A stretch of DNA of 64,000 bases, taken from Fibrobacteria bacterium GUT307 (lineage in GTDB: Bacteria; Fibrobacterota; Fibrobacteria; Fibrobacterales; Fibrobacteraceae). The stretch covers positions 1,766-65,765 of the forward strand of contig LIUI01000155.1 in assembly GCA_001462235.1 (NCBI GenBank). Reading direction: 5' to 3'. A program made the translations under genes and the position numbers. This document shows positions 2 through 59,016 of the stretch, one piece after another (the stretch's first letter is position 1; every line of letters starts with the position of its first letter). The notes beneath the pieces are model-generated. The model was not told the origin of the DNA and made no database searches. It saw only the letters and a list, made by a program, of their open reading frames with translations.

Positions 2-130
2 TTGAATAGCCAAATTGAAAATTTACTAGATTTACTGCGGGCAGAATTCTGCAATGCCAACACCAGGATTGCAGGAGCGACCCAAAAACAGTCCAGCGGA
101 ACGCTCACAACCGGGCAACCGGCGAGCTAG
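2..130 (+). CDS. 3' end of an ORF entering from the left edge; position fits a DGR accessory (Avd-like) gene, but this is unproven
   Basis: Open frame from the window edge to TAG at 128-130 (..LNSQIENLLDLLRAEF..). It lies immediately upstream of the template repeat, where Avd genes usually sit. No family motif recognised. Confidence 0.2.
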   Translation: MNSQIENLLDLLRAEFCNANTRIAGATQKQSSGTLTTGQPAS

Positions 131-194
131 GAGAATGGCTAGTGAGATTTTCTTTTAGAACCTCTTGCCGGCCAGCAAAAAGTTTCCGCTTATG

Positions 195-389
195 TTTCTG
201 CTCTGCCGGGCGGCAACGGCAACTCGGATGGCAGTTTCAACAATGTTGGCAACAACGGCAACTGGTGGAGTGCCAGCGAGAACAATAGCAACAACGCCTA
301 CAACAGGAACATGAACTACAACAACGACAACGCGAACTACAACAACAACAATAAGAACAACTTGTACTCTGTTCGTTGTTTGCAGGACT
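195..389 (+). repeat. DGR template repeat (TR)
   Basis: 195 nt matching 32167-32361 with 23 mismatches, all at TR adenines. Contains 21 AAC codons in the frame of the target gene. Lies directly 5' of a DGR-type RT. Confidence 0.93.
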
Positions 390-1489
390 GTAACGGGGAA
401 GCGGTAGGGGCGTTGCATGCAACGCCCCTACAGGCTTCCCCTATCTTTTTGGAGTTGCACAGAGCCTACCTAGATGCCCGTAAACACAAACGCAATACAA
501 TAAATCAACTTAAATTTGAACGCCGTTTAGAAGTGGAATTGCTTTCTCTTTGCAAAGAGCTTGAAACCCATACTTACGAGCTTAAGCCGGGAATATGCTT
601 TATCAATGAATTGCCTGTAAAGCGTGAAATTATCGCCGCAGATTTTAGAGACAGGGTAATCCATCATTTTCTCTACAACAGGATTTATCCCGCCTTAGAC
701 AGAAAGTTTATTTACGATTCTTACAGTTGCAGGGTAGGCAAAGGAACATTGTTTGGCATAAAAAGGGTGCAAAAATTTTTGAAATCGTGCGGGGCAACGC
801 CCTGGGTTTTGCGTTTGGACATACAAGGATTTTTCATGGCTATAAACCGCAGCATCTTGTTTGATTTGATAATCAAAGGATTGCAAAATGAGATTTGCGA
901 TTTATCCAAGTTTTTAATCCGTAAAATAGTATTCAACAACCCTTTGAAAGATTCTCTTTTCAAAAGCCCAAAATCCGCTTGGAATGATTTGCCTCCGGAC
1001 AAATCCTTGATGTATTCTGCCCCAAACTGTGGCCTCCCTATAGGCAACCTAACAAGCCAGGTTTTTGCGAATGTGTATCTGAATCCCTTAGACCATTTTA
1101 TAAAAAGGGATTTAAAAATAAAGTGCTACGGCAGGTATGTTGACGACATGGTTTTAATCCACAGCGACAAGCAAATTTTGCTGAATGCAATCTTGCATAT
1201 AAGGGAATTTTTATTGAAGAAACTGAAATTGACTTTGCACCCCCGCAAAATCCGCTTGCAGCAAGCATATAAAGGCTTTGATTTTTTAGGTGCCCGCATA
1301 TCGCCTTTTTATTTAGGCCCCGGAAAACGCATTGCAGGTAATTTTTGCGAATGTATTTTTGACCCCTTGCCAAATTTTGAAAAGCAAGTGCAAAGGGTGC
1401 AGAGTTATTTGGGATTGTTGGGAAGCTTTAGCAAGCGGTGCAACATCGGGGGCATCGGAGTTCAGACAATTTTACTATGTTTACAATAA
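311..1489 (+). CDS. DGR-type reverse transcriptase
   Basis: YVDD catalytic box (YGRYVDDMVLI), PIGNLTSQVFANVYL (the DGR-typical [ILV]GxxxSQ motif) and ADFRDRVIHHFL. The ATG at 311 lies inside the TR, and there is no other ATG before the RT domain. The real start may be TTG at 449 or 455, after the hairpin. Confidence 0.9.
   Translation: MNYNNDNANYNNNNKNNLYSVRCLQDCNGEAVGALHATPLQASPIFLELHRAYLDARKHKRNTINQLKFERRLEVELLSLCKELETHTYELKPGICFINELPVKREIIAADFRDRVIHHFLYNRIYPALDRKFIYDSYSCRVGKGTLFGIKRVQKFLKSCGATPWVLRLDIQGFFMAINRSILFDLIIKGLQNEICDLSKFLIRKIVFNNPLKDSLFKSPKSAWNDLPPDKSLMYSAPNCGLPIGNLTSQVFANVYLNPLDHFIKRDLKIKCYGRYVDDMVLIHSDKQILLNAILHIREFLLKKLKLTLHPRKIRLQQAYKGFDFLGARISPFYLGPGKRIAGNFCECIFDPLPNFEKQVQRVQSYLGLLGSFSKRCNIGGIGVQTILLCLQ
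395..441. other. Long GC-rich hairpin in the TR-RT spacer
   Basis: GGGGAAGC-G-GTAGGGGCGTTGCA / TGCAACGCCCCTAC-AG-GCTTCCCC, about 22 bp of near-perfect stem. The core palindrome recurs at 11748-11775. Confidence 0.8.
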
Positions 1490-10022: not shown

Positions 10023-11125
10023 TTACGGGAAATATAGAAATCTCTATAACTTCCGTTCCCGAGTAAAATGTCTATTGGCAGTTTTTTGAATTCGTATTCG
10101 TATGGCGGGGCTTTCCATGCAAAGTCGTTTTTGTGGCGGTGGAATAGGTATTTTAAGATTTGGATTGTTGTTTCAAAGGGTAAAAATTCTTCACGCTCCA
10201 AAACATGGATTTGCGCTCCGTGGCAAATTTGCCCGGAGTATTTGTGGAATGTGGGCTGGAAATGGCTTTCCCTAAAATAAACGCCCGGCAATTTAAGGTT
10301 GTTTAGATAGTCGCACATTTCTTGGGCTTCAATCCAGGGAGCGCCAAAAAGCTCAAAGGGCTTTGTTGTGCCGCGTGCTTCGCTGATATTTGTTGCTTCT
10401 AGCAAGCATTGCCCGGGATAAACTATTGCGGTATCTAGGGTTGGCATATTAGGGGAGGGCATAATCCAAGGCAAGCCGGTTTGGTCAAACCACATATTTT
10501 TTTTATAGCCCTGCATTTCCAAAACATGAATTTCTGCACTTGGGAAGCATTCTTCTTTGAATTGCAAAGCGAGTTCGCCTATGGTTTTTCCGTGCCGCAC
10601 TTGAATGGAATGCAAACCCACAAAGCTTTTGTATTCCAAATCCAAAACCGGTCCCTCCGTTATATGGCAGCCTATAGGGTTTGGGCGGTCTATTACAATA
10701 ACAGGGATGCCGCATTTTTCTGCGGCTTTTATGCAAAGATAAAGAGTCCAAATAAAGGTGTAATACCTTGCACCTACATCCTGCAAATCAACCAAAAGCA
10801 TATCAAGATTTTTTAGCATTTCTGGCGTGGGTTCTCTGTGCTCGCCGTATAAACTGTAAATAGGAATGTTTAAGCGTGGGTCTGTGGAGCCTTCCCATTC
10901 TATCATATTGTCTTGGGTGTGCCCCAGAATTCCGTGCTGCGGGCCAAAAAGAGCAGCAAGTTTGAAGAGCGAACCGTTGTGCTTTTCTAGCGTTGCAAGG
11001 GTGTGGTGCAGGTTTGCGGTTATTGATGCGGGGTGCAAAACCGCTCCTAATCGCTTTCCCTTTAATTTTTCCGGGAAATGTTTTTCCAAATTTTCAAGGG
11101 CTAGTTTTACCATAAATCGTTCCAT
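10019..11125 (-). CDS. DUF1343 family protein (NamZ-like exo-beta-N-acetylmuramidase)
   Basis: GPQHG, YSLYG, DLQDVGARYYT and IDRPNP motifs characteristic of DUF1343. Confidence 0.75.
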   Translation of the reverse strand: MERFMVKLALENLEKHFPEKLKGKRLGAVLHPASITANLHHTLATLEKHNGSLFKLAALFGPQHGILGHTQDNMIEWEGSTDPRLNIPIYSLYGEHREPTPEMLKNLDMLLVDLQDVGARYYTFIWTLYLCIKAAEKCGIPVIVIDRPNPIGCHITEGPVLDLEYKSFVGLHSIQVRHGKTIGELALQFKEECFPSAEIHVLEMQGYKKNMWFDQTGLPWIMPSPNMPTLDTAIVYPGQCLLEATNISEARGTTKPFELFGAPWIEAQEMCDYLNNLKLPGVYFRESHFQPTFHKYSGQICHGAQIHVLEREEFLPFETTIQILKYLFHRHKNDFAWKAPPYEYEFKKLPIDILLGNGSYRDFYISRK

Positions 11126-18981: not shown

Positions 18982-19028
18982 AATTTACTATATTTACACC
19001 GATATGTGTTTAGATTTAACTGAGGAAG
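18982..19028 (+). promoter_or_regulatory. Promoter plus conserved leader of the first T6SS-linked transcription unit
   Basis: AATTTACTATATTTACA...TGTGTTTAGATTTAACTGAGGAAG. Homologous to 22053-22100. Confidence 0.55.
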
Positions 19029-19534
19029 CTCCACGGCAGGGAGTGGGAGTATTATTCGGAATATTATTTGCTGTTTGGGGATTTTTTTCGCCATATTTGT
19101 ACGCAAATGAGCTTTATGGGCAAGCTTCACTTAGAGCATTGCAGGGCGTTGAAGTTTTTGTGCATTTATCCGGTGACCCAGAAATTAAAAAAATGGAAAA
19201 TGAAATAAAAAGCAGGTTAAAAACAAGACTTGAATATGTTAAAGTGCCTATAATCCCCTACAACAAGCTAAACGATATAGGTGATAAAATATCAAATAGC
19301 GGGGCGCTTAAATTTTTTATGACCGGTTTTAAACAAAAAGATGGCGACTATGTTATTTATGCAACTTTGCAATTACACCAAAGGGCATATTTGGCTATAA
19401 GCCACGAATATATGGATTGCCAAACTTGGGATAGATGGAAAATGGGTGTTTTTAAAGATGTTCAATTCTATTTAGAAGTAGAAGACATGATAAGGGATTT
19501 CGCAAATGATTTTATTGCAGCAACTGGATTTTAA
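19004..19534 (+). CDS. Hypothetical secreted protein, first gene of the T6SS-linked unit
   Basis: ORF with signal-like segment (VLFGILFAVWGFFSPYLYA). The true start may be GTG at 19043, 15 nt after GAGGAAG. Confidence 0.45.
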   Translation: MCLDLTEEAPRQGVGVLFGILFAVWGFFSPYLYANELYGQASLRALQGVEVFVHLSGDPEIKKMENEIKSRLKTRLEYVKVPIIPYNKLNDIGDKISNSGALKFFMTGFKQKDGDYVIYATLQLHQRAYLAISHEYMDCQTWDRWKMGVFKDVQFYLEVEDMIRDFANDFIAATGF

Positions 19535-19982
19535 GTTAGCAACCAAGCTCCTGATATTCCTGATAGTCGGGATTCAGGCCGCTTTTGCTATTCAGATAGA
19601 GGCGCCTAAAGAAATTGAGGAGCATGTTTTGGCATACTCAAACGAAGCAGGAGCAGAAAATATGAATGCTACTTTAAGGGTTAGCATCATAAAAAAAATA
19701 AATTGCAAGGCTTTTGCTATGAAACTTATAGATAAAAGCAAAGGAAAAACCCTCAAAGAAACAGAGCGTTGCTTTACCGAATTTCCGAATTCCGCTTTGC
19801 AAAACGGAATTTTTGAACTTTTTGGGCACAAGGTAAATACAGAAACCGAATTGAGCGAATATACAAAAACGGTTTTATTCGGAATAGGCTTTGCGGCGAC
19901 GGGGGCTTTGCTCTATTATTCAAAGCAGCCAAAGCCGGTTTACGGGTACAGCAAAAATAAAATTTCAGAGGTTGCCGAATGA
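19506..19982 (+). CDS. Hypothetical membrane protein, T6SS-linked
   Basis: N-terminal signal/TM and C-terminal TM (VLFGIGFAATGALLYY). Overlaps tssK start (ATGA). Confidence 0.45.
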   Translation: MILLQQLDFKLATKLLIFLIVGIQAAFAIQIEAPKEIEEHVLAYSNEAGAENMNATLRVSIIKKINCKAFAMKLIDKSKGKTLKETERCFTEFPNSALQNGIFELFGHKVNTETELSEYTKTVLFGIGFAATGALLYYSKQPKPVYGYSKNKISEVAE

Positions 19983-21211
19983 CCATGTTAGTTGCTTGGA
20001 AAGAGGGGATGGCTTTGTCGCAGCAACACCTGCAACAATCGGATAAATTTATCCTTGGGCATATAAAAAATGTTTCTGGTTTGCCAAAAGGAATGCATTT
20101 TGGTTTTAGCAAGTTGATATTTGAAGAAGACTTGATAAAAGACGGACAATTTGCGCTTAAAGAATGTGAAGCTGTTTTTCCAAGCGGAATTTCTTTTATT
20201 GATTACGAAAGTAAATCAGTAAAAATAGAAGCTAGAAATTTTACCCAAATTTTTGACAAGAGCTTGAATAGCCTTAATGTGTATTTGGCTTTGGATTTGA
20301 ATAAGCCAATTGAATTTTCCGAAGAGCACACTTCTCGTTTCAAGGTTGTGTGGGAAAATTGCTGGGATTTGTATTCTACAGAAAATTCAGTGCTTATACC
20401 AGTTTCCATTCCGGTTCCTTCTGTTGTTTTTGACGGGGAGTCTTTAGACGGAAAGGAATTTTTGCCGATTGCAAGGCTTTTGAGAAATTTGCAAGGCTCT
20501 TTTGAGCTAGATAAAAATTTTTATCCGCCTTTAATATCCTTGAACGGTTACGAATATTTTTCGCAAAAATTAAAATATTTTGATGCGCTTTTGCAAGGCA
20601 GAATAGCAAACATTTCTTATTCAAAAGAATTATTGCTTAAAGATTTAAAAACCTTAAGAGTGGCTTTGGGTTGTATGCAAGGCACGGATGGAGTATTGCC
20701 TTTCTTGCTTTTTTGTGAAATAGCGAAATGTTTGCAAGAGCCGTTTAATTATAATCATGCAGAATTTGACAAATGTTTCGGTAAAATCTTCACTGCATTA
20801 AACGATTTTTTATTATCCGAGAAAAAAGTTGCATTTTTGCAAAAACGCTTGCAAAAAGAAGGGCCAAGTTCATTTTTTGCAAATCTGGCAGATTTGGATA
20901 TTTCAAATGCCACTTCTGTTTGGCTTGCGGTGGAATCTAAATTATCACCGGAAGAAGCTATTAAATTTATTCCTATGCAACTTAAAATTGCTCCTAAGTC
21001 AAAATTATCCGGCATAGTTGTTAGTGCAACGCATGGCATAAACTGCATTCACAGCATTGTTCCAAAAACCATTCAAGAGATGCCCGGAACATTTTATTTT
21101 AAGCTGCAAACGGATTCTTCTCTTTGGAAAAGTTTATGCGAAGAAAGAGAACTCGGCATTTACGCACCAATAACATTGCGGGTGGATTCCATAGATATCA
21201 TAAAGGTGTAG
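19979..21211 (+). CDS. tssK: Type VI secretion baseplate protein TssK
   Basis: N-terminal WKEGMALSQQHLQQSD matches the TssK signature W.EG..L.PQHFQQ.D. Length 410 aa. Confidence 0.8.
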   Translation: MTMLVAWKEGMALSQQHLQQSDKFILGHIKNVSGLPKGMHFGFSKLIFEEDLIKDGQFALKECEAVFPSGISFIDYESKSVKIEARNFTQIFDKSLNSLNVYLALDLNKPIEFSEEHTSRFKVVWENCWDLYSTENSVLIPVSIPVPSVVFDGESLDGKEFLPIARLLRNLQGSFELDKNFYPPLISLNGYEYFSQKLKYFDALLQGRIANISYSKELLLKDLKTLRVALGCMQGTDGVLPFLLFCEIAKCLQEPFNYNHAEFDKCFGKIFTALNDFLLSEKKVAFLQKRLQKEGPSSFFANLADLDISNATSVWLAVESKLSPEEAIKFIPMQLKIAPKSKLSGIVVSATHGINCIHSIVPKTIQEMPGTFYFKLQTDSSLWKSLCEERELGIYAPITLRVDSIDIIKV

Positions 21212-21213
21212 GG

Positions 21214-21951
21214 TTAATCCTTTATGCAACGGACGGAAAGTAAATTAGTTTTTTTACCATTGTTATCATTTCTTATAGCATCGTAATCATGTAATATTCG
21301 CTTGTAATGAGCCTCACCACTTGACTCCGTAGCACTCCACCAATAACCTATGTCACCTATATCATCTAAAAAGTTACCTCCAGGCAATGCCGAAAAACCG
21401 TAATCGTTTGTACCCGTGTTAGTAGTCCAAAGATCATCATTTGCTTTTAATGCTTTTCCTGCTATTTCTGTACCGCCAACGGTTGTTATTAATGCTTCCC
21501 AGTCGGTATCATCTGGCAACTTCCAACCAATGGTAGAACAAGCAGCAGTTGCGTCTATCCAATTATACAATCTTCCGTAAATATCGCAGTTACTTTCTAT
21601 GTCACCATAACATTTACTACTTGCAGTCGCTATATTCAAGTTCTTTGCCATCCAAATTTGGTTACCTATTGTCACCCCAACAATACCATCATCACATGCC
21701 ATATATTTGGGGTCATAAGCTACTGTTCCGCATAATGCTTTAGGCCATCTGGCTTTTTCAATGTTTCCGCATTTAATTACAAATTCGGTACCATCTTCAT
21801 AAGCATCGCAACTTTGCCCATCTTTTCCATTTGTGCCTGGAGAGCCAGCTGCTTTTACACCTGTATCTACATTGTCAATAAGCCAATTGCCGTTACTGCC
21901 AATGGTTACAACGCTGCCAGATACACCCGGCAGACCTGGCTCACCAGGCAA
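21214..21951 (-). pseudogene. 5'-truncated gene fragment: collagen-like Gly-X-Y stretch plus FISUMP domain
   Basis: Frame opens right after a TAA with no ATG/GTG and no signal peptide. It begins mid collagen repeat (QPGLPGEPGLPGVSGS). The C-terminus carries YGRLYNW, GW.LP, GFSALPGG, YWWS and SVRCIKD FISUMP motifs. Confidence 0.6.
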
Positions 21952-22052
21952 GCCTGGCTGACTAGCGGAACCACTCGCTAATATAGAAAATTATTTTGCC
22001 GTGAGCCACCAGCACAAGGTTGAAAGGTGAATAGAAAAATTCTTCGATTTTT

Positions 22053-22100
22053 AATTTACTATATTACAATCTTGTGTGTGATTAGACTTAACTGTGGAGG
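22053..22100 (+). promoter_or_regulatory. Promoter plus conserved leader of the tssL-tssB-tssC unit
   Basis: AATTTACTATATTACA...TGTGTGATTAGACTTAACTGTGGAGG. The start codon lies 14 nt after GGAGG. Confidence 0.55.
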
Positions 22101-22114
22101 TATGAGGCAGTTTT

Positions 22115-23947
22115 ATGAGAAAATCTTTTATTGAGCTTTCTGAAAACATTTTTTGTTCCGTGCTTTTACTGCCGTGCGATAAAGAAATTTCGGCAGAAGA
22201 AACCAAAGGCGATTTTATAGAAAAAATAAAGGAATTTTGCAATGATTCCACAAATAACGGTTACACTGCAGGTGAAATAGAAAACGCTAAATATGCTTTG
22301 TGTGCATGGATAGACGAATATATTTACACAAATTCCGCTATATCTTCACAATGGTTTTCGCATTCCCTTGCTTTGAGCGAATTTGAAGATGCCGAAGCCG
22401 GAATACATTTTTTTGAAAGAATTGAAAATTTTCATAAAAATAAAAACTCAACTCCTTTGCTTGAATTGTATGTAAAATGCATTCTGTTTGGCTTTATGGG
22501 CAAGTTCAGAATAGGAAGCACGGCAGAGTTAAAACAAATTTTAAATTCTGCAATTTCTAAAACAAGTATGTTTTTAGATAAAATAAATTATAAACCCATA
22601 ACAAAAAACAAACACCTATTTTCATTTAGGCGAGGCATAAAAAATATCCTAATAACAGGATTTTACGAAGATAAATGTAAAAGTTCAGCAAAAACACAGG
22701 AACCACCAAAAGGGTACAAATATATATATTCCGATATGAAAAATATAGAAGAATTACCCTTTATTGACGGTATTATTTCAATAAATCCTTTATTTGAAGA
22801 AAAAGACCAAACCGAATCTTTAGAAAAGCTTTTCTCAAAGCAAAAATGCAAAATACCGCTTTATGCCGTGGCAGATTTGGAAATTCAGGAATTTGACCAG
22901 ACGTTGGATAAAAATTACGAATTTAACAGCAATCATTTGAATTACTATTTGCACAAATATTTCTTGGACGAAATTGCCTGCAAAAAGATTCTCTCCTTGC
23001 CTAGAAAATTGAAACAATTTAAAGAGACAGAAGCTTTTTATTCGTTGCCATTTTTTCCATTCATGAAAAATGAAAAACCACTTGCGTACAGCTTAGCTAA
23101 GAGAGTATTTTTTATTTTGCTTTTGGTTGCGCTTGTATTGGCTATTTTATTTTTTGTATTCTCTATTATTAATCAGCATAAAGAAGAAATCAAATCTGAG
23201 GCAATGCTTATATTGCAAAAAAGCAAACTTGATAGCATAAAAGCAGCAGAAGATAGCATGAGAGCAGCCGAAGACAGTGTTAAAGCCATGCGAGATAGCA
23301 TTAAAGCCGCGGAAGATAGCCTGAATCTTGAATTTGAAAAAAATCTTAAAAACTTAGAACTTAAATATCAAAAGCAAATTTTAGAGAAATTCCCTTTTAA
23401 GGAGGGTAAAATCCCGTCTGTAGGCGAAGTTAGCGATTATTTTGGCAAGGAGAGCGATTTTTACAAATTCCTTGACATGATAGACACAATTTCCGATGAT
23501 AGGATAAAATTCAACAAAAAAACTTTAGCTACGCTTTCGCTTCTAAAAAATAACACTTGGAGCGGCATTCCTATTAGTATAACTATTCAGGCTCCAAAAA
23601 TGGCATCCGTGACATTTGGGTTAGATAGTCAATATGTGGAAATTGAGCGTGGAAAAAGCAAAACAATAGAAATAGTTTTCCCGCAGAAAAGCAAAGGTGG
23701 CATTGAGATTGTAGCAAAAACAGCGAACAATATTTTTAGTGAAAATATCCGTGGCGAATGGAGTTTGCTTAAAATCCAAGATAGGCATGTATTTTCCTTC
23801 ATAGATAAAAGCTATTCGATTGATGTAGAATTAAACATTCGTTGGTATTTGCCAAAGGATGCTATAAAACCAAATGACTGGTTTAAACTCCGCATGGAGC
23901 CAAATTTAATAGAGAATTCCCGTTTAACCAATAACCTAGGAGAGTAG
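22115..23947 (+). CDS. tssL: TssL/DotU-like T6SS membrane protein with long extension (possible TssM-like periplasmic region)
   Basis: DotU motifs (YALCAWIDEYI, GIHFFERIE, LELYVKCILFGFMGKFR). Single TM at about residue 335 (FFILLLVALVLAILFFVF). AAEDS[MV][KR]A repeats. C-terminal FPF...EVSDYFG...F.KFL segment. Confidence 0.7.
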   Translation: MRKSFIELSENIFCSVLLLPCDKEISAEETKGDFIEKIKEFCNDSTNNGYTAGEIENAKYALCAWIDEYIYTNSAISSQWFSHSLALSEFEDAEAGIHFFERIENFHKNKNSTPLLELYVKCILFGFMGKFRIGSTAELKQILNSAISKTSMFLDKINYKPITKNKHLFSFRRGIKNILITGFYEDKCKSSAKTQEPPKGYKYIYSDMKNIEELPFIDGIISINPLFEEKDQTESLEKLFSKQKCKIPLYAVADLEIQEFDQTLDKNYEFNSNHLNYYLHKYFLDEIACKKILSLPRKLKQFKETEAFYSLPFFPFMKNEKPLAYSLAKRVFFILLLVALVLAILFFVFSIINQHKEEIKSEAMLILQKSKLDSIKAAEDSMRAAEDSVKAMRDSIKAAEDSLNLEFEKNLKNLELKYQKQILEKFPFKEGKIPSVGEVSDYFGKESDFYKFLDMIDTISDDRIKFNKKTLATLSLLKNNTWSGIPISITIQAPKMASVTFGLDSQYVEIERGKSKTIEIVFPQKSKGGIEIVAKTANNIFSENIRGEWSLLKIQDRHVFSFIDKSYSIDVELNIRWYLPKDAIKPNDWFKLRMEPNLIENSRLTNNLGE

Positions 23948-23948
23948 A

Positions 23949-24446
23949 ATGGCGAACAGTTATCAAAACGAGATCCCGCCCGCACGAATAAATATCCAAT
24001 TAAACGTGGATACGGGCGGAGCACAGAAAAAAATGGAACTTCCACTGAAGTTGCTGGTACTTGGCGATTTTAAAATGGATGGCGATGAGTCCAGACTTAT
24101 GGAACGGGAAAAGATAAACATAAATAAGGATAATTTTGATGGGGTTATGCAGTCTATGAATATAGAATTGAAAACTTCCGTTGAAAATCGCCTCAAAAAA
24201 GACGATTCAGAAATGCCCATAGAATTAAAATTCGACAGCATGAAATCCTTTGAGCCTATGGAGATAGTGAAACAAGTTCCCGATTTGAATCGCTTAATGG
24301 CTGTTCGCAATTTGATAAAAGATTTGGGTTCAAATTTACTGGACAATAGAGAATTCAGAAAAAAAATGGAAGCTATTTTGAAAGACAAAAATTCCATGAA
24401 TTCTGTTTTAACCGAACTCAAAGCAATACCGAGTGATAAGGAGTAG
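23949..24446 (+). CDS. tssB: T6SS contractile sheath small subunit TssB
   Basis: EIPPARINIQLNV...KKMELPLKLLVLGDF matches the TssB/VipA N-terminal signature. Confidence 0.9.
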   Translation: MANSYQNEIPPARINIQLNVDTGGAQKKMELPLKLLVLGDFKMDGDESRLMEREKININKDNFDGVMQSMNIELKTSVENRLKKDDSEMPIELKFDSMKSFEPMEIVKQVPDLNRLMAVRNLIKDLGSNLLDNREFRKKMEAILKDKNSMNSVLTELKAIPSDKE

Positions 24447-24454
24447 GAGGATAT

Positions 24455-25936
24455 ATGGAAGACACTCAGCTTTCTTCAATTTATAAGAGTGTAAATTTGG
24501 ATTTGCCGTCTAAGTTTATAGACCTTTCAGAGTTTAGCGACGAAACATCGCTTTCCAAGTATAGCCCTAGCGAGCGAATAAGTTCGGGTCTTAAGGCGTT
24601 TGTGCAGAGTGTTTTAGACAGTTCTGCAAGCGTAGAAAAAATAGACCGTGCCTTTATAGATTCGCTTGTGGCGTGGATAGATAAAATAGTGAGCGAACAA
24701 CTGGATGCAATTATGCACAGCACAGAATTTCAGAAATTGGAATCTTCTTGGCGTGCTTTGCATTTTTTGGTTCAACGCACCAATTTTAGAAAAAATGTAA
24801 AGATAGAATTGATAAATGCAGACAAAGAATCTATAAAATATGATTTTGAAGATTCGCCAGAAATCATTCAAAGCGGCCTTTACCGTCATATTTACAGCGA
24901 TGAGTACGATACTCCGGGTGGCGAGCCTTATGCTGCGATGATAGCAAATTATGAATTTGATAACTCCGCAGACGATATTGACCTTTTGCAAAACATATCT
25001 TGTGTTTCTGCCGCTTCGCATTGCTTGTTTGTTTCTTCCGTAGGGTCTAAATTTTTTGGAAAATCGGATATTGGCGATTTGCCAAAAATAGATGATTTAG
25101 AAAACTTTATGGAAAAAGCAGAATACACAAAATGGCGTGGATTCCGCAAAACAGACGATTCTCGCTATATAGGCCTAACTTTGCCTAGATTTTTGTTGAG
25201 GAATCCTTATGGCGAGGGCAAGAGTGCCAGGGGTTTTAAATATACGGAGTCTGTTCTGGGCGGAGAGCACGAAAAATATTTGTGGGGAAACTCGGCATTT
25301 GCTTTTGCCGCAAATATGGTTCGTTCTTTCCAAGATAATGGTTGGTGCGTTCAAATCAGAGGCCCGGAGAGTGGTGGCAAAGTTGAAGATTTGCCAATAC
25401 ATCTCTTTAACTCTGGCAAAGGAGCGCAAACAAAAATCCCAACGGAAATTTTGATTCCTGAAACCCGTGAATTTGAATTTGCAAAGCAGGGCTTTATTCC
25501 GCTGAGTTTTTACAAAAACCGCAATTATGCTTGTTTTTTCTCGGCGAATTCCACTCAAAGGCCAGAAGAATACGATGATGCACAGGCTACCGCAAACTCA
25601 AGGGTGAATTCTCGTTTGCCTTATATATTCCTTACCGCAAGGCTTGCGCATTACCTAAAAGTTTTGCAGAGAGAGAATATTGGAGCAAGCAAGAGCGCGG
25701 GCATTTTGGAAGCGGAACTTAACAACTGGATAAAAGGGCTTGTGACGGAAATGGAAAATCCAGGTCCAGAGCTTGCAGCAACTCATCCTTTGAGTTATGG
25801 GCAAGTGACGGTTGCCGAGAATCCAGATAATCCCGGATTTTTCAAGGTTGCTCTTTCCGTTGTTCCACATTTCCAGGTAGAAGGCGTGAATGTGAATTTG
25901 TCATTGGTGTCTAAGATGCCAGCGGCAAAGCAGTAG
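24455..25936 (+). CDS. tssC: T6SS contractile sheath large subunit TssC
   Basis: F.KLESSWRALHFLV, LYRHIYSDEYDTPGGEPYAAMIANYEF and SAASHCLFVSS match conserved TssC/VipB blocks. Confidence 0.9.
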   Translation: MEDTQLSSIYKSVNLDLPSKFIDLSEFSDETSLSKYSPSERISSGLKAFVQSVLDSSASVEKIDRAFIDSLVAWIDKIVSEQLDAIMHSTEFQKLESSWRALHFLVQRTNFRKNVKIELINADKESIKYDFEDSPEIIQSGLYRHIYSDEYDTPGGEPYAAMIANYEFDNSADDIDLLQNISCVSAASHCLFVSSVGSKFFGKSDIGDLPKIDDLENFMEKAEYTKWRGFRKTDDSRYIGLTLPRFLLRNPYGEGKSARGFKYTESVLGGEHEKYLWGNSAFAFAANMVRSFQDNGWCVQIRGPESGGKVEDLPIHLFNSGKGAQTKIPTEILIPETREFEFAKQGFIPLSFYKNRNYACFFSANSTQRPEEYDDAQATANSRVNSRLPYIFLTARLAHYLKVLQRENIGASKSAGILEAELNNWIKGLVTEMENPGPELAATHPLSYGQVTVAENPDNPGFFKVALSVVPHFQVEGVNVNLSLVSKMPAAKQ

Positions 25937-25937
25937 T

Positions 25938-27236
25938 TTACACTATAGCCGCAATTTCCTTCATTGCGGCTTCCGTGTCTTCGTATTTTGAACTCTCGCC
26001 TATGCCTTGAATCAAAAATTTATCCAATGCGGCGTGCCTTTTAATAGAAACATCTATTTCTGGGTCTGAACCTTTTGCGTATGCACCTATGTTTATCAAA
26101 TCCTCGTTTTTGCGATAAGTTGCAAGGCTTCGCAAAAGGGTTGCAGATAGTTCTTTTAGTTGCGGGTTTGCTATATCTGTGCGGCAACGGCTTATGCTTG
26201 CCAAAACATCTACGGCAGGGTAGTGGTTTTTGTTTGCAAGCGCACGAGAAAGCACTATATGCCCGTCTAAAATGGAACGGACAGCGTCTGCTATAGGGTC
26301 TTCCAAATCATCGCCGTCCACCAGAACAGTGTAAAGCCCTGTAATGCTTCCTTTGTCGCTATTGCCAGACCGCTCAAATAACTTTGGCAAAAAGGCAAAA
26401 ACAGATGGGGTGTAACCCTTTGTTGCGGGTGGCTCGCCAACTGCCAAACCTATTTCTCTTTGCGCCATTGCAAGGCGTGTGCTTGAATCCATCAAAAAAA
26501 ATACATCATCGCCGGAGTCCCTGAAAAACTCCGCTATGCTCATAGCTAAAAAACTCGCCTTTAAGCGGACAAGGGCGGGTTGGTCGCTGGTTGCAACTAT
26601 TACCACGGAACGCTTTAATCCTTCCGGGCCTAAATCTTTTTCTATGAATTCCCTCACTTCCCTGCCACGTTCTCCGATTAAAGCAATTACATTTACTTTT
26701 GCAAGGCAGTTCCTCGCTATCATGCCCATGGTAACGCTTTTGCCAACTCCGGAACCGGCAAAAATCCCCATTCTTTGCCCGCGCCCAATGGTTAAAAAAC
26801 CATCTATGGCCCTAATCCCTGTGTACATGGGTTCTTTTATGCGTGCTCTTTGCATGGCGGTTGGGGGGCTTGAATAAATGGAGCGGCGAGCTTCGTATTT
26901 AATTTCCCCTAGGTTGTCCATTGGGTTTCCCATGCCGTCTAAAACCCTGCCCAAAAGTTGGTAACCAACGGGTGCGGTTAGCGTTTCCCCTTTTGCCACA
27001 ACAGACATTCCGGGCCTTATGCCTTCTAACACGCCAAGCGGCATGATAAGGGTTCTGGTTTCTCTAAAACCTACTACTTCTGCATGGCATACGGTTTTTC
27101 CATTTTGCTCAATAACGCAAAGTTCGCCAATGCCGGCGTTTGGCCCCTCGCATTCAATAACCAAGCCTATTATTTTCACAATGCGCCCACGCACATCTGC
27201 AAGGCGAATGCGGGAGATTTTTTCCAGCTTATTCAT
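25938..27236 (-). CDS. fliI: FliI/YscN family type III secretion ATPase
   Basis: Walker A GSGVGKS, ALIGERGREV, Walker B FFLMDSSTR and TVLVDGDD motifs. Confidence 0.9.
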   Translation of the reverse strand: MNKLEKISRIRLADVRGRIVKIIGLVIECEGPNAGIGELCVIEQNGKTVCHAEVVGFRETRTLIMPLGVLEGIRPGMSVVAKGETLTAPVGYQLLGRVLDGMGNPMDNLGEIKYEARRSIYSSPPTAMQRARIKEPMYTGIRAIDGFLTIGRGQRMGIFAGSGVGKSVTMGMIARNCLAKVNVIALIGERGREVREFIEKDLGPEGLKRSVVIVATSDQPALVRLKASFLAMSIAEFFRDSGDDVFFLMDSSTRLAMAQREIGLAVGEPPATKGYTPSVFAFLPKLFERSGNSDKGSITGLYTVLVDGDDLEDPIADAVRSILDGHIVLSRALANKNHYPAVDVLASISRCRTDIANPQLKELSATLLRSLATYRKNEDLINIGAYAKGSDPEIDVSIKRHAALDKFLIQGIGESSKYEDTEAAMKEIAAIV

Positions 27237-30538: not shown

Positions 30539-30544
30539 AATATA
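30539..30544 (-). promoter_or_regulatory. -10 box 7 nt upstream of the pepA ATG
   Basis: Minus strand: TTTCTATATT-tatcatc-ATG. Confidence 0.5.
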
Positions 30545-30620
30545 GAAAAATTGATATAATTTCCGAAAATGGAAACTCGTAAACTATACTGTATCGTTGA
30601 TTTTTTTATGTAAATTTTTC

Positions 30621-30626
30621 TACATT
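30621..30626 (+). promoter_or_regulatory. -10 box 7 nt upstream of the 30634 ATG
   Basis: TTTTCTACATT-atccccc-ATG. Confidence 0.5.
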
Positions 30627-30633
30627 ATCCCCC

Positions 30634-31515
30634 ATGAACGCATTTATGAGAAAAATACTATGCATCTCGTTTCTCTTTGCTATTGCCGCTTATGGGCAGC
30701 AGGAACGCATAGCAATAATGAACACTGTTGACAACAAAGATTCCATAGCTTTTTTGGATTTGAGCTATTTAACGGACAAGCTCCGCGACATAGCAGGCAA
30801 GATTCTGCCTCAAAGCCGCTATGGCATAATGACCCAGCAGAGCATAGTTGACCGCTTAGGCTCTCAAGAACGGGCTATAAAGGAATGCAAGGAGGCAACC
30901 TGCTTGGCAGATTTGGGCAGGAAAATCAGTGCAGATTACATAGCTCAGGGGCATGTTGGGCGTTTTTCTGGTGAATTGACTATAAAGGTAGAGCTTTACA
31001 ATGTAGGTAGCAGCAACTTGATTGGCTCGTTCACTGGGGATTCCAAAGATTTGAAGGGTTTGCTTTCTGTTTTGGAGGCTAAGGCTCCTAAGCTTTTTGA
31101 AGATATGATTTCTACAACTAAGGAAAAAGAAAAGCCTGCACCGCCACCTCCTGCTCCGGAAAGTGCCTGGGATTTAGTGGGGAGGGCGAGCGATTTAGAG
31201 GATGCTGTTGATGTTGAGCTTGGCTACAAGTTGCCGGCGAGGGTTGACTCTCAGGTGAATACGGAAGAATACCGGCCTTCCAATAACTCTTTTTGGATTG
31301 CTCTTGCATTGGATGTAGCAGGTGCCGCATTTGTGGGTTATGGCATATACAAGAATAGTGAAGTGCTTAACAAGCATGAAGAATACGGTGATTTACGTTC
31401 CGGTTTTGGCAATTCTTGGGAAAAAGTGGAGGATGCCAAAACATCAAGGAATGTTTCTTATATTTTGGGCGGCGTGCTTTTGGCATCGGGAATAGGAGTG
31501 CATATATGGTTTTAG
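30634..31515 (+). CDS. Hypothetical secreted/membrane protein
   Basis: Signal peptide, Pro-rich linker (KPAPPPPAPE), two C-terminal TM segments. Overlaps the start of the DGR target gene. Confidence 0.5.
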   Translation: MNAFMRKILCISFLFAIAAYGQQERIAIMNTVDNKDSIAFLDLSYLTDKLRDIAGKILPQSRYGIMTQQSIVDRLGSQERAIKECKEATCLADLGRKISADYIAQGHVGRFSGELTIKVELYNVGSSNLIGSFTGDSKDLKGLLSVLEAKAPKLFEDMISTTKEKEKPAPPPPAPESAWDLVGRASDLEDAVDVELGYKLPARVDSQVNTEEYRPSNNSFWIALALDVAGAAFVGYGIYKNSEVLNKHEEYGDLRSGFGNSWEKVEDAKTSRNVSYILGGVLLASGIGVHIWF

Positions 31516-32363
31516 TTATGATTATAGCATTCCTGTTTTTGGGGTGCGCAGAAGTTGAGCGAGACAATCCTTATGATCCGGATGGGATTAATTACAACCC
31601 CAGCCTTGTTGCAATTTCCAGCTCCTCTGTCCGCAGCTCAAGTTCATCCATTCCACCGCCAAGCTCCAGCTCCTTTGCTCCAAGTTCAAGTTCGTCAAGT
31701 GTTGCTCCGAGCAGTAGTTCAATTAGTTCGTCTTCGTTGTCTAGTTCGTCTGCACCGCCACCAAGCTCTAGCTCCTTAGCCAACGTTGTTTATGGTACTC
31801 CCGTAGATTATGGTGGCGAAACTTATCCAACGGTTATTATAGGCACTCAAACTTGGTTTGCTAAGAATTTGAATTACGATCCCGGCACAGGCAATTCTGG
31901 TTGCTATGATTGTGCGACTTATGGCCGTTTATACGATTGGGCAACGGCAATGGATCTTCCATCAAGTTGCAACTCAAGTAGTTGCTCAAGCTCAATACAG
32001 TCAAAGCATCGTGGTATTTGCCCTTCTGGTTGGCATATACCGAACAATAATGATTGGGATGCGTTGATGACAGCTGTTGGCGGTAGTGGTACAGCAGGCA
32101 AGCATTTGAAGGCTAAAGAAGGCTGGAATCCCTACAGCGGCATAGAGAACTTGGACACCTACGGATTTTCTGCTCTGCCGGGCGGCAACGGCTACTCGGA
32201 TGGCAGTTTCGGCAATGTTGGCTACGACGGCTACTGGTGGAGTGCCAGCGAGGTCAATAGCAACTACGCCTACGGCAGGGGCATGAACTACTACTACGAC
32301 TACGCGAGCTACAACTACAACGATAAGTTCGGCTTGTACTCTGTTCGTTGTTTGCAGGACTAA
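31506..32363 (+). CDS. FISUMP-domain lipoprotein, DGR variable target protein
   Basis: Lipobox (FLFLGC), Ser-rich linker, FISUMP motifs (YGRLYDW, GWHIP, GFSALPGG, YWWS, SVRCLQD). The last 65 codons are the VR. Confidence 0.85.
   Translation: MVLVMIIAFLFLGCAEVERDNPYDPDGINYNPSLVAISSSSVRSSSSSIPPPSSSSFAPSSSSSSVAPSSSSISSSSLSSSSAPPPSSSSLANVVYGTPVDYGGETYPTVIIGTQTWFAKNLNYDPGTGNSGCYDCATYGRLYDWATAMDLPSSCNSSSCSSSIQSKHRGICPSGWHIPNNNDWDALMTAVGGSGTAGKHLKAKEGWNPYSGIENLDTYGFSALPGGNGYSDGSFGNVGYDGYWWSASEVNSNYAYGRGMNYYYDYASYNYNDKFGLYSVRCLQD
32167..32361 (+). repeat. DGR variable repeat (VR)
   Basis: Matches TR 195-389 over 195 nt. All 23 differences are at TR adenines (16 of 21 AAC codons plus one AAT). The 3' 28 nt are identical to the TR. 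Confidence 0.93.
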
Positions 32364-32389
32364 GCGGTTGGGTGCTTGCACCTAGCCGC
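32364..32389. other. Hairpin immediately 3' of the VR and stop codon
   Basis: GCGGTTGGGTGC-TT-GCACCTAGCCGC forms a 12-bp stem (two G-U pairs). A second 7-bp stem follows (CGCCGCT...AGCGGCG, about 32388-32414). Confidence 0.7.
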
Positions 32390-32474
32390 CGCCGCTAGCC
32401 TTGGCAAGCGGCGCAACATGAAGCTGTGAGCGTTTATGTATGGCATTGCGCCGGGGCGTGGCGGGGCGAATTTT

Positions 32475-33339
32475 TTAGCTTAGACTATGCGTCCCGGTTA
32501 GGCGGAAATGTTTTTTTTTGGCTTTATCCATGGCAATCTTCTGTTTCACATCAGCTAAAGACATGCCGCTTTCCCAAAGAGAAAATACTTTCTCAACGCC
32601 AATCTCAATGCCTTCTTCCTTCTCAACCTCAAGGGCTGTTTCAAGATTCCATTCTTCGTCAAACATATTCAATACCTCCGAGCCGTGCTTTTCAAGAAAA
32701 TATACTAAAATACCACGCTCAATGCAAGTTTTTATGGCTGCCGCTATGGCTGCGTCTTTATCCATAGTTTCCATGTTCTTCTTAACCTCTGCTATCAACT
32801 CACTGTAACCGCTTAGATTGGGACTCCTTTGAATCATGCTCGCATTGCGGCCTTTGTTGATGTTGTAAGCCTTAACTACCAACTCAAGATTGGGAACGCC
32901 TTGACCAAGCTCAAAAAAATCGGACAATCTCATTTCCGTGAAATCGGCCATCTCTTTTTCGCCATTGTATAATGGCTATAAATTCCGGGGATGGTATTTT
33001 AATTTTATGCTCCTTGTACAAATCTCTGCGATTTGTGAGCCTTTCGTATTCGCGAGCTATGTATATAAGCATTCTGAGCGGCATATTTTCGTTTATTGAC
33101 GACTGGTGCTCTATCAATACCACCAGTTTATCCTCAATCACAAAAGAGATGTCGTTCAGTTGTTCCATGTAGAGGGCGTCAGAAAGAGTCACAATTTTGA
33201 TTTTTGTACTTTCTGGGTAGTTTTTACCGCTAATAGCGTTGTATAGCTCCAGAGCTTTTTCGGGTGTTCCGAAGAGCTTTGTGAAGACGCTGTTTTTGTA
33301 TTGGCGGTTGGTCGCGGCTTTGCCTGCATTTTCTTCCAT
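32475..33339 (-). pseudogene. Frameshifted Rpn/YhgA-like PD-(D/E)XK nuclease (putative transposase) gene
   Basis: ORFs 32911-33339 and 32475-32951 are two halves of one gene. A third frame reads ..PEFIA-LYNGEKEMADFTEMRLSDFF across about 32952-32976. YKNSVF and LIEHQSSINENMPLRML motifs. Confidence 0.7.
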
Positions 33340-37649: not shown

Positions 37650-37654
37650 ATTTC

Positions 37655-37660
37655 TATATT
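37655..37660 (+). promoter_or_regulatory. -10 box 10 nt upstream of the cimA ATG
   Basis: AATTTCTATATTACCtcccttaATG. Confidence 0.45.
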
Positions 37661-41437: not shown

Positions 41438-41443
41438 AATGTA
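41438..41443 (-). promoter_or_regulatory. -10 box 6 nt upstream of the dapA ATG
   Basis: Minus strand: TTTTCTACATT-accccc-ATG. Confidence 0.5.
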
Positions 41444-41479
41444 GAAAATTTCTAAATTTCTTTTACAATAGGAGTTTAT

Positions 41480-48727: not shown

Positions 48728-48732
48728 ATTTC

Positions 48733-48738
48733 TATATT
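48733..48738 (+). promoter_or_regulatory. -10 box 6 nt upstream of the GT2/GtrA ATG
   Basis: AATTTCTATATT-acctaa-ATG. Confidence 0.5.
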
Positions 48739-59005: not shown

Positions 59006-59011
59006 AATATA
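59006..59011 (-). promoter_or_regulatory. -10 box 9 nt upstream of the greA ATG
   Basis: Minus strand: TTTTCTATATT-aactcaaat-ATG. Confidence 0.45.
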
Positions 59012-59016
59012 GAAAA

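Follow-up and report, generated by a model that had tools for sequence, protein, structure and literature searches.

A diversity-generating retroelement core with its template repeat inside the reverse transcriptase reading frame in an uncultured Fibrobacterota bacterium

The window analysed here is a stretch of 64,000 nt from Fibrobacteria bacterium GUT307, an uncultured member of the Fibrobacterota (contig LIUI01000155.1, positions 1,766 to 65,765 of the forward strand). Its left end very probably carries the right-hand core of a chromosomal diversity-generating retroelement (DGR), comprising the end of an accessory gene, a template repeat (TR) together with a reverse transcriptase (RT), with one non-adjacent target on the same strand 31.8 kb downstream. 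The target encodes a lipoprotein with a FISUMP domain and contains the matching variable repeat (VR). Starting at the left edge, the accessory gene terminates upstream of the TR. A single open reading frame (ORF) then passes through the TR in the frame in which the VR is translated, continues through a GC-rich stem-loop and a T-rich tract, and ends at the stop codon of the RT. The features are listed in Table 1. Directly observed at the locus are a repeat pair with adenine-specific divergence, the placement of the VR within a target gene, an RT with the DGR signature, an Avd-type neighbour, stem-loops (one of them just past the TR) and the continuity of the ORF; all but the last are criteria by which a DGR is recognized. 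A preliminary description of this DNA had proposed an adenine-rich TR in frame with a DGR-type RT; every part it described is found, and its interpretation is supported.

Table 1. Positions of the features discussed, numbered from the first nucleotide of the window
Feature	Position	Strand	Remarks
Accessory gene, 3' end	2..130	+	42 codons and TAG stop; final helix and tail of Avd-type domain
Single open frame	146..1489	+	Region upstream of TR, TR (in VR frame), 20-codon linker and RT domain; stop 1487-1489
TR	195..389	+	65 A in 195 nt; 21 in-frame AAC codons
Only ATG upstream of RT domain	311..313	+	26 codons before TR end; start in public gene calls (392-aa P0001)
Unmutated 3' tail of TR/VR homology, IMH-like	361..389	+	29 nt; three A present, none changed; last mismatch at 360
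GC-rich stem-loop, ~20 bp	395..441	+	Begins 6 nt past last TR codon; inside ORF, encodes ..GEAVGALHATPLQAS..
T-rich tract (CTATCTTTTTGGA)	442..454	+	Directly follows stem-loop
DGR-type RT domain	449..1489	+	Pfam RVT_1 1.5e-16; TTG 449/455 as alternative starts
TssK/VasE	19979-21211		Type VI cluster
DotU/TssL	22115-23947		Type VI cluster
VipB/TssC	24455-25936		Type VI cluster
FliI/T3SS-type ATPase	25938-27236	-	
Non-adjacent target gene	31506..32363	+	Lipoprotein-type signal (..LFLGC), Ser/Pro-rich linker, FISUMP / Fib_succ_major domain
VR	32167..32361	+	Gapless alignment to TR; last base is first base of target TAA stop
Two adjacent GC-rich hairpins	32364..32413	+	Right past target stop; dG -37.7, z -2.5

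The TR and the VR differ at 23 positions, all of them adenines in the TR (12 A to G and 11 A to T), and are identical at 130 of 130 non-adenine positions. Given the adenine content of the TR, the hypergeometric probability that all 23 mismatches fall on adenine is P = 4.8e-13. In the frame of the VR, 22 of the 23 mismatches lie within AAC codons and 16 of the 21 AAC codons of the TR are altered; first codon positions account for 16 of the changes, second positions for seven and third positions for none. The near-copy with adenine-only differences and the count of AAC codons, both taken from the preliminary description, are reproduced on recomputation, and the mismatches, which that description had said would count against it if they spread to other bases on computational re-alignment, are strictly confined to adenines. 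Neither two A-free sub-patterns used as probes nor the entire repeat with its A positions masked revealed a further copy on either strand of the window. Immediately beyond the common unmutated tail the two sequences part. The tail resembles the IMH (initiation of mutagenic homing) region, which in other DGRs stands at the VR end opposite a non-identical IMH* at the TR end, and cDNA synthesis presumably starts from it.

For comparison, 160 related loci were collected from scans of genomes and metagenomes, and the in-frame analysis was made on the 38 with at least 53% RT identity. Together with 16 relatives in which a VR was found, the window gives 153 A-to-G, 146 A-to-T and 41 A-to-C substitutions at TR adenines; A to C is thus under-represented, and is absent among the 23 changes in the window.

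The RT has the motif PIGNLTSQ at 1037-1060, of the form [ILV]GxxxSQ that is the motif-4 signature of DGR RTs, and the catalytic YVDD at 1136-1147, both as expected from the preliminary description. In a search against all solved structures the best match is the RT of the Bordetella phage DGR (bRT; PDB 8ub7, of the series of cryo-EM structures of the bRT–Avd–RNA complex; Handa et al., bioRxiv 10.1101/2023.10.23.563531), with E = 3.8e-30, followed by group II maturases (4e-8) and retron-type RTs (1e-7). The grouping with group II or retron RTs that was named beforehand as a possible refutation is therefore not seen. The alignment with 8ub7 spans the N-terminal extension, the fingers and the palm, and includes GIPIGSLTSQLFANVY against GLPIGNLTSQVFANVY. 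A total of 7665 homologues was found. The closest named ones (75-84% identity) come from Candidatus Fibromonas, Fibromonadaceae and Chitinispirillales metagenome-assembled genomes (MAGs), with Fibrobacter at 53-59%.

Two paralogous FISUMP fragments might by chance lie beside a group II intron or retron RT, and some relatives are indeed named 'retron-type reverse transcriptase' in their sources. The top NCBIfam match of the RT, moreover, is the group II RT/maturase model (group_II_RT_mat, 88.6 bits with a cutoff of 300), ahead of the retron St85 RT (38.7 bits with a cutoff of 235); NCBIfam has no DGR model and every RT match there is far below its cutoff, so that these scores cannot classify the RT. 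A non-DGR origin is refuted by the structure search, in which the Bordetella DGR RT leads the group II proteins by 22 orders of magnitude, by the adenine-only mismatch pattern (P about 5e-13), by the presence of an Avd-type neighbour, and by Rfam, which finds no group II intron or retron RNA in positions 1-2000 of the window (the only hits there are miRNA-like hairpin noise). The chance that remains for it is negligible.

The ORF tail at the left edge, already taken for such in the preliminary description, has no Pfam match on its own. In about 30 related loci the ORF immediately upstream of the TR ends in a sequence with 53-93% identity to it, and the full accessory protein there has 256-290 amino acids. 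In a profile of 15 such proteins (alignment A4), residues 128-231 match a set of classical DGR Avd proteins with an hhalign probability of 98.9% and E = 1.6e-17. The comparison set was drawn from unrelated DGR loci, and four sampled members of it exceed the Pfam bAvd threshold. The aligned stretch covers the WGFLNSQIE.LLNLL helix that is present in the window. One full-length relative, compared directly with Pfam, stays under the Avd cutoff (24.4 vs 40 bits), and against PDB sequences the accessory profile finds only a weak match, 2gsc, with E = 0.29. Residues 14-108 of A4 match a stand-alone 168-aa protein of a Flavobacteriales DGR locus, L027 (hhalign 96.4%, E 1.4e-9), which is itself marginally above the Pfam cutoff for MutS_I (PF01624; 20.8 vs 20.6 bits); a direct Pfam scan of the N-terminal domain of the accessory gives no match. 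Judging by these profile comparisons in relatives, the lineage's accessory protein appears to join an N-terminal MutS_I-like (MSL) domain to a C-terminal Avd domain. The fusion is represented by L087 (7500-8300) and a further 14 loci. As a gene of its own, the MSL-like part is found directly upstream of the RT in DGR loci from Flavobacteriales and Prolixibacteraceae (L027 2776-3282, L040 1949-2458).

A VR is located 1.1-1.4 kb upstream of the TR in 16 relatives, with 7-24 adenine differences and 0-1 differences at other bases, and all 16 loci have the order target, accessory, TR, RT. In L087 a FISUMP lipoprotein gene is followed by the accessory gene and then by TR and RT; its VR region failed the VR scan. 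Just beyond the left edge of the window a second, proximal target is probably present. That it and the avd gene would be found there was part of the preliminary description, and synteny lends the prediction good support through the conserved tail, the Avd profile match and the upstream VR of the 16 relatives.

The distant target matches PF09603 (7.8e-26) and TIGR02145 (4.7e-41), and the VR makes up its C-terminal 64 codons. From its signal and domain content the product is predicted to be a surface lipoprotein whose C-terminus is diversified by the DGR. The two hairpins past its stop codon have comparable counterparts downstream of VRs in relatives, and match the inverted repeat, rich in GC, that follows the VR in many DGRs (about a third). 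Between and around the TR and the VR are genes for GMP synthase, a pyridoxal phosphate-dependent decarboxylase (Orn/DAP/Arg type), methylmalonyl-CoA mutase, type VI secretion, a FliI-type ATPase, an M17 peptidase, LeuA and PPDK. A gene for an AI-2E transporter neighbours the RT. Both repeats are thus surrounded by ordinary chromosomal genes, which makes this a cellular DGR whose target is non-adjacent.

Directly downstream of the TR the RNA can form a strong stem-loop. The segment 383-460 folds with dG -44.8 kcal/mol and a z-score of -6.4 relative to shuffled sequences. A GC-rich hairpin of 10-21 bp occurs 5-7 nt past the TR in all 26 distinct related junctions examined, and its loop is often a GNRA tetraloop (GCAA or GAAA). 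In an alignment anchored on the basal 8 bp of the hairpin, 95.8% of cells pair and seven of the eight pairs are changed on both sides; the covariation score is 0.85 compared with 0.37 in shuffles (0 of 500 reach 0.85) and at most 0.34 when the partners are slid, in an alignment that was fitted to each sequence's own fold. RNAalifold applied to a MAFFT alignment of the junctions finds no structure, the stems being too divergent for alignment by sequence. The stem-loop matches in position and form the Avd-binding stem-loop of Bordetella, of which it is a putative analogue. Handa et al. (bioRxiv 10.1101/2023.10.23.563531) predict such an element a short way downstream of the TR for 207 of 278 DGRs that contain Avd. 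The unusual feature is that an Avd-binding-type stem-loop is here located inside a coding sequence.

The stem-loop in the window is 21 nt longer than in most relatives (25-codon vs 18-codon linker); a longer form is seen also in connection with L093 and proteins P0004 and P0027. The extra inner stem (AAGCGGTAGGGGCGTTGC..) resembles the hairpin past the distant VR (AAGCGGTTGGGTGCTTGC..), when window positions 390-444 are compared with 32362-32389. This likeness may stem from past recombination between the flanks of the TR and the VR.

A GC-rich stem followed by a run of T might also act mainly as an intrinsic terminator or attenuator, from which a short accessory-TR RNA would be released, with the RT made by read-through, perhaps aided by ribosomes coming from inside the TR. 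There are 5-8 T within 10 nt past the hairpin in most relatives, and most of the close ones have 6-8 T within 0-4 nt of it (for example L083, L085, L092, L095, L100 and L096). Since RTs with a start of their own can do without the SPLF residues that the T-tract encodes, the T-run is probably conserved as nucleic acid, and a discrete short TR RNA is known from the literature for Trichodesmium. However, the published Avd-binding element, which is likewise placed and has a 9-11-bp stem capped by a tetraloop, explains the stem-loop fully; more distant relatives such as L101, L104-L107, L001-L003 and L041 have only a weak T-run; and a consensus terminator scan of the window calls neither the hairpin nor the T-rich tract. 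A primarily terminating role is considered unlikely.

Two further RNA elements were sought around the TR. Neither a Bordetella-like primer duplex between TR and spacer nor a cPRT-stop-like duplex between the region upstream of the TR and the T-tract gave a consistently conserved pairing. The A-run CAAAAAG (175-181) is complementary to CTTTTTG (445-451), both of low complexity, and a similar pairing is possible in L082, L087, L100 and L096; it could be a cPRT-stop-like duplex or could be due to chance.

The TR lies in the same open frame as the RT, as previously described, the frame being open from 146 to 1489. This arrangement is general in the lineage. The TR, read in the coding frame of the target, is continuous with the RT in 32 of the 38 loci. 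Among 28 distinct TR-to-RT linkers none has a stop in the RT frame, whereas 11 and 23 of them have stops in the other two frames. The linkers measure 51, 54, 57 or 75 nt, equal to 17, 18, 19 or 25 whole codons, and the called proteins of further relatives have linkers of other whole-codon lengths. On this comparison of sequences, the continuity of the frame is kept by selection in the lineage. The TR and the linker of the window encode the peptide stretches MNYNNDNANYNNNNK.. and ..GEAVGALHATPLQASPIF...

The exceptions have their own form. In L081 the TR and linker are cleanly deleted (2078-2140) and an ATG stands directly at the N-terminus of the RT (MVELHKAY), and in L102, L109 and L110 the TR is in another frame and there is an ATG at the RT N-terminus. 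In L089 and L091 an insertion of about 540 nt with a PemK/MazF toxin gene is placed exactly between the TR-linker and the RT. The insertion in L091 (1536-2049) comprises the PemK/MazF-type toxin gene (1701-2048; Pfam 2.5e-18) and a small upstream ORF. In both loci about 25 nt of the junction is duplicated on the two sides, and the RT starts at a TTG 1 nt past the toxin stop.

Similar continuity is found outside the lineage. In unrelated DGRs with TRs of the DUF1566/FGE-like kind (..NNYVWPVRGG type) the TR is in the RT frame and the short linker has no start codon (L067, L070, L077, L078 and L150). An in-frame TR is also observed in L013, L063, L064, L144 and L030, again from unrelated DGR lineages.

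Inspection of the frame confirms that the sole ATG upstream of the RT domain lies inside the TR. There are in-frame TTG codons at 362, 380, 413, 449 and 455. The two possibilities offered in the preliminary description, a start at TTG 449 or 455 and an N-terminal extension encoded by the TR, are both viable in the window, and the extension is obligatory in some relatives. In 11 of the 32 in-frame loci there is no ATG, GTG or TTG between the end of the TR and the N-terminal RT motif AY.DAR.HKR, and five of these (L101, L097, L096, L152 and L107) also lack CTG, ATT, ATC and ATA. The motif has to be translated, since it belongs to the N-terminal extension that contacts the template and Avd in the Bordetella structure. 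In L101, L097, L152 and L103-L107 the VRs differ from the TRs almost only at adenines, and for this reason these elements look active. Read from these sequences, the RT of relatives that have no start in the linker must begin inside or upstream of the TR. The closest relatives of the window, L082 and L154 (85% identity), have no ATG, GTG or TTG past the TR.

For the window itself we give an even chance to a start at ATG 311, with a 392-aa product, and regard a start at TTG 455 or 449 as a reasonable candidate, if short of an even chance. The wider proposal is that the RT of this Fibrobacterota DGR lineage, and independently that of some other DGRs, has abandoned a start of its own and is translated from inside the TR through the Avd-binding stem-loop, with functional coupling between the two. 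It is put forward tentatively, at somewhat less than an even probability.

A number of observations weigh against parts of the overall reading. The related loci share phylogeny, and the counts made over relatives are consequently not independent. The ATG equivalent to 311 is conserved in 26 of the 32 in-frame relatives; as the corresponding methionine is kept in the VRs, and thus in the target protein, its conservation is not independent evidence for a start and was rejected as such. The window has in-frame TTGs at 413, 449 and 455. The codon equivalent to 455 is TTG, CTG or ATG in 22 of 30 distinct relatives, and TTG and CTG account for 73% of the leucine codons at this place compared with a background of 48%, an enrichment in start-compatible codons that speaks for internal initiation in many lineages. 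The RTs of L089 and L091 have no TR-encoded extension (both loci were left out of the VR scan). No candidate start is preceded by a Shine–Dalgarno sequence at the spacing of 5-9 nt used by other genes in the window. Finally, the left part of the cassette falls outside the window, and activity of the DGR is deduced from a single TR/VR comparison.

Several of these points would fit the same DGR with an RT that starts at TTG 455 (or 449), past the stem-loop and U-rich tract, the TR remaining untranslated and its in-frame position being inherited baggage. Both TTG codons exist in the window, three lineages have an ATG exactly at the 455-equivalent, RT relatives without an adjoining in-frame TR begin within a few residues of it, and the toxin gene inserted in L089 and L091 splits the RT from the TR. 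Against such a start, the close relatives L082 and L154 offer none of the usual start codons after the TR, and five loci do not have even a near-cognate one, L101 and L097 among them with adenine-only VR differences. Both the frame and the absence of stops are kept over four linker lengths, which is needless for an untranslated TR. In addition, TTG 455 has a GGAG at zero spacing rather than the 5-9 nt of other genes in the window. We consider a start past the stem-loop a serious possibility that falls short of probable.

A Shine–Dalgarno-like GGAG or AGGA at 5-9 nt upstream of the start is observed for 14 of 37 large ORFs in the window (~38%). A second motif, TTTCTATATT, occurs 36 times in the window with at most one mismatch, compared with 12.0 +/- 3.6 in shuffles, and ends 6-12 nt before the ATG in about 10 others of the 37 large ORFs. 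Examples are at 10031-10040(-), 30539-30548(-), 30617-30626(+), 37651-37660(+), 41438-41447(-), 48729-48738(+) and 59006-59015(-). From its position it looks like a promoter element of the -10 type for mRNAs that are leaderless or have a very short leader.

The DGR of the window is apparently active, as judged by the divergence of its repeats. The element could instead be decayed or orphaned, with the similarity of TR and VR reflecting past activity that ended, for example, through loss of the proximal part or failure to express the RT. The left part of the cassette is beyond the window edge, no canonical ribosome-binding site precedes any candidate start, and a TR-deleted relative (L081) exists, all of which could be expected of such an element. 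Against this, there are no non-adenine differences over 130 positions beside 23 at adenines, the RT is full length with all its motifs, and the accessory tail is intact to its stop. Decay is thus very improbable.

Homology to the Bordetella and Legionella systems suggests the mechanism. The TR and its flanks would be transcribed into an RNA to which the RT binds and to which the Avd-type accessory protein attaches at the stem-loop. Reverse transcription of the TR would begin in the unmutated 3' tail and misincorporate at random opposite adenines, and the cDNA would replace the VR. This would recode up to 21 Asn (AAC) codons on the C-terminal ligand-binding face of the FISUMP surface lipoprotein. 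With a start inside the TR, the N-terminus of the RT would consist of an Asn-rich peptide encoded by the TR and a linker encoded by the stem-loop.

Between the DGR core and the distant target lies a type VI secretion cluster (19004-25936). Just past the target, an ORF at 32911-33339 (-) has weak matches to PD-(D/E)XK / YhgA-like transposases, and may be tied to the arrival of the target copy.

The closest described system is the Legionella-type DGR. Like the DGR of Legionella pneumophila (target LdtA), the element is chromosomal and non-phage, has a surface lipoprotein of the DUF1566/Fib_succ_major group with a diversified C-terminus, is associated with an Avd-type accessory and, as judged from relatives, probably a MutS-like one, and has a GC-rich inverted repeat past the VR. 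The Legionella element is classified under target category 'd' (DUF1566/DUF823/Fib_succ_major, CLec2 VR), with MSL and Avd, and Architecture D (Wu et al. 2018). The present element differs in the fusion of MSL and Avd (in relatives), in a TR placed within the RT frame, in a visible target at a distance of 31.8 kb and in a host from the Fibrobacterota.

With Bordetella phage BPP-1 (mtd-avd-TR-brt) the locus shares the order avd, TR, RT, adenine-specific mutagenesis, the I/LGxxxSQ and Y(M/V)DD motifs, and a tetraloop-capped stem-loop a few nucleotides past the TR, where Avd binds in Bordetella. In contrast, the spacer after the Bordetella TR is 140 nt long and non-coding and brt has its own start, whereas in the window the RT domain follows the TR after only some 60 nt, in frame. 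Any counterparts of the primer strand, the thumb ring and the bRT-binding stem-loop would have to overlap RT coding sequence, and none was identified in the window. In BPP-1 the target, a phage tail fibre, is found next to the cassette, unlike the remote lipoprotein gene here. The separation of the VR resembles that in Treponema denticola and other DGRs with remote targets, where the VR is tens of kb from the RT in an ordinary chromosome and is identical at non-A positions; Treponema differs in its HRDC accessory and FGE-type targets, and the window has one distant target in 64 kb. Wu et al. 2018 assigned non-adjacent targets, anywhere between a few kb and Mb away, to 45 of 372 DGRs.

An overlap between TR and RT ORF has been recorded before. 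In 'group 3' of DiGReF (Schillinger et al.) the TR is within the annotated RT ORF, just as the 392-aa product from ATG 311 overlaps the TR. That survey recorded the overlap only and called the spatial arrangement irrelevant, and unlike the present analysis reported no test of frame conservation or absence of starts. A search of the accessible literature found no paper that tests the conservation of the TR-RT frame or the loss of start codons. An Avd accessory is present in about 74% of DGRs, and FISUMP targets have already been reported in MAG surveys. FISUMP-type targets, MSL and Avd accessories, non-adjacent targets and overlap of TR and RT ORF have thus all been surveyed, and as a DGR the element adds little: its biology is that of a Legionella-type DGR whose target is non-adjacent, all of it known. 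The element is an ordinary member of a well-known system whose understudied quirk is the TR inside the RT reading frame, and it departs from the textbook in one aspect alone, that translation in the lineage likely starts inside the TR.

This architecture is easily misread. In public gene calls the relatives include 'fusion' proteins of PF09603 and PF00078 with 400-460 aa, gene callers label such elements as 'Fib_succ_major + RVT_1' fusion proteins, and at least one recent DGR-finding pipeline removes cases in which TR and RT overlap, on the ground that they do not fit the definition of a DGR. There is therefore a risk that elements of this kind are mis-annotated or discarded. The locus is valuable as a clean and apparently active example of a DGR from an uncultured Fibrobacterota bacterium, and the approximately 30 related loci make it testable whether some DGR RTs are translated within their own template. 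If translation through the stem-loop is real, one RNA would be template, protein-binding element and coding sequence. Ribosomes would have to pass through the Avd-binding stem-loop, so that the same RNA molecule could not be mRNA and Avd/RT-bound template simultaneously. Speculatively, this exclusion might lead to cis-coupling, or to autoregulation of RT synthesis by the binding of Avd and RT.

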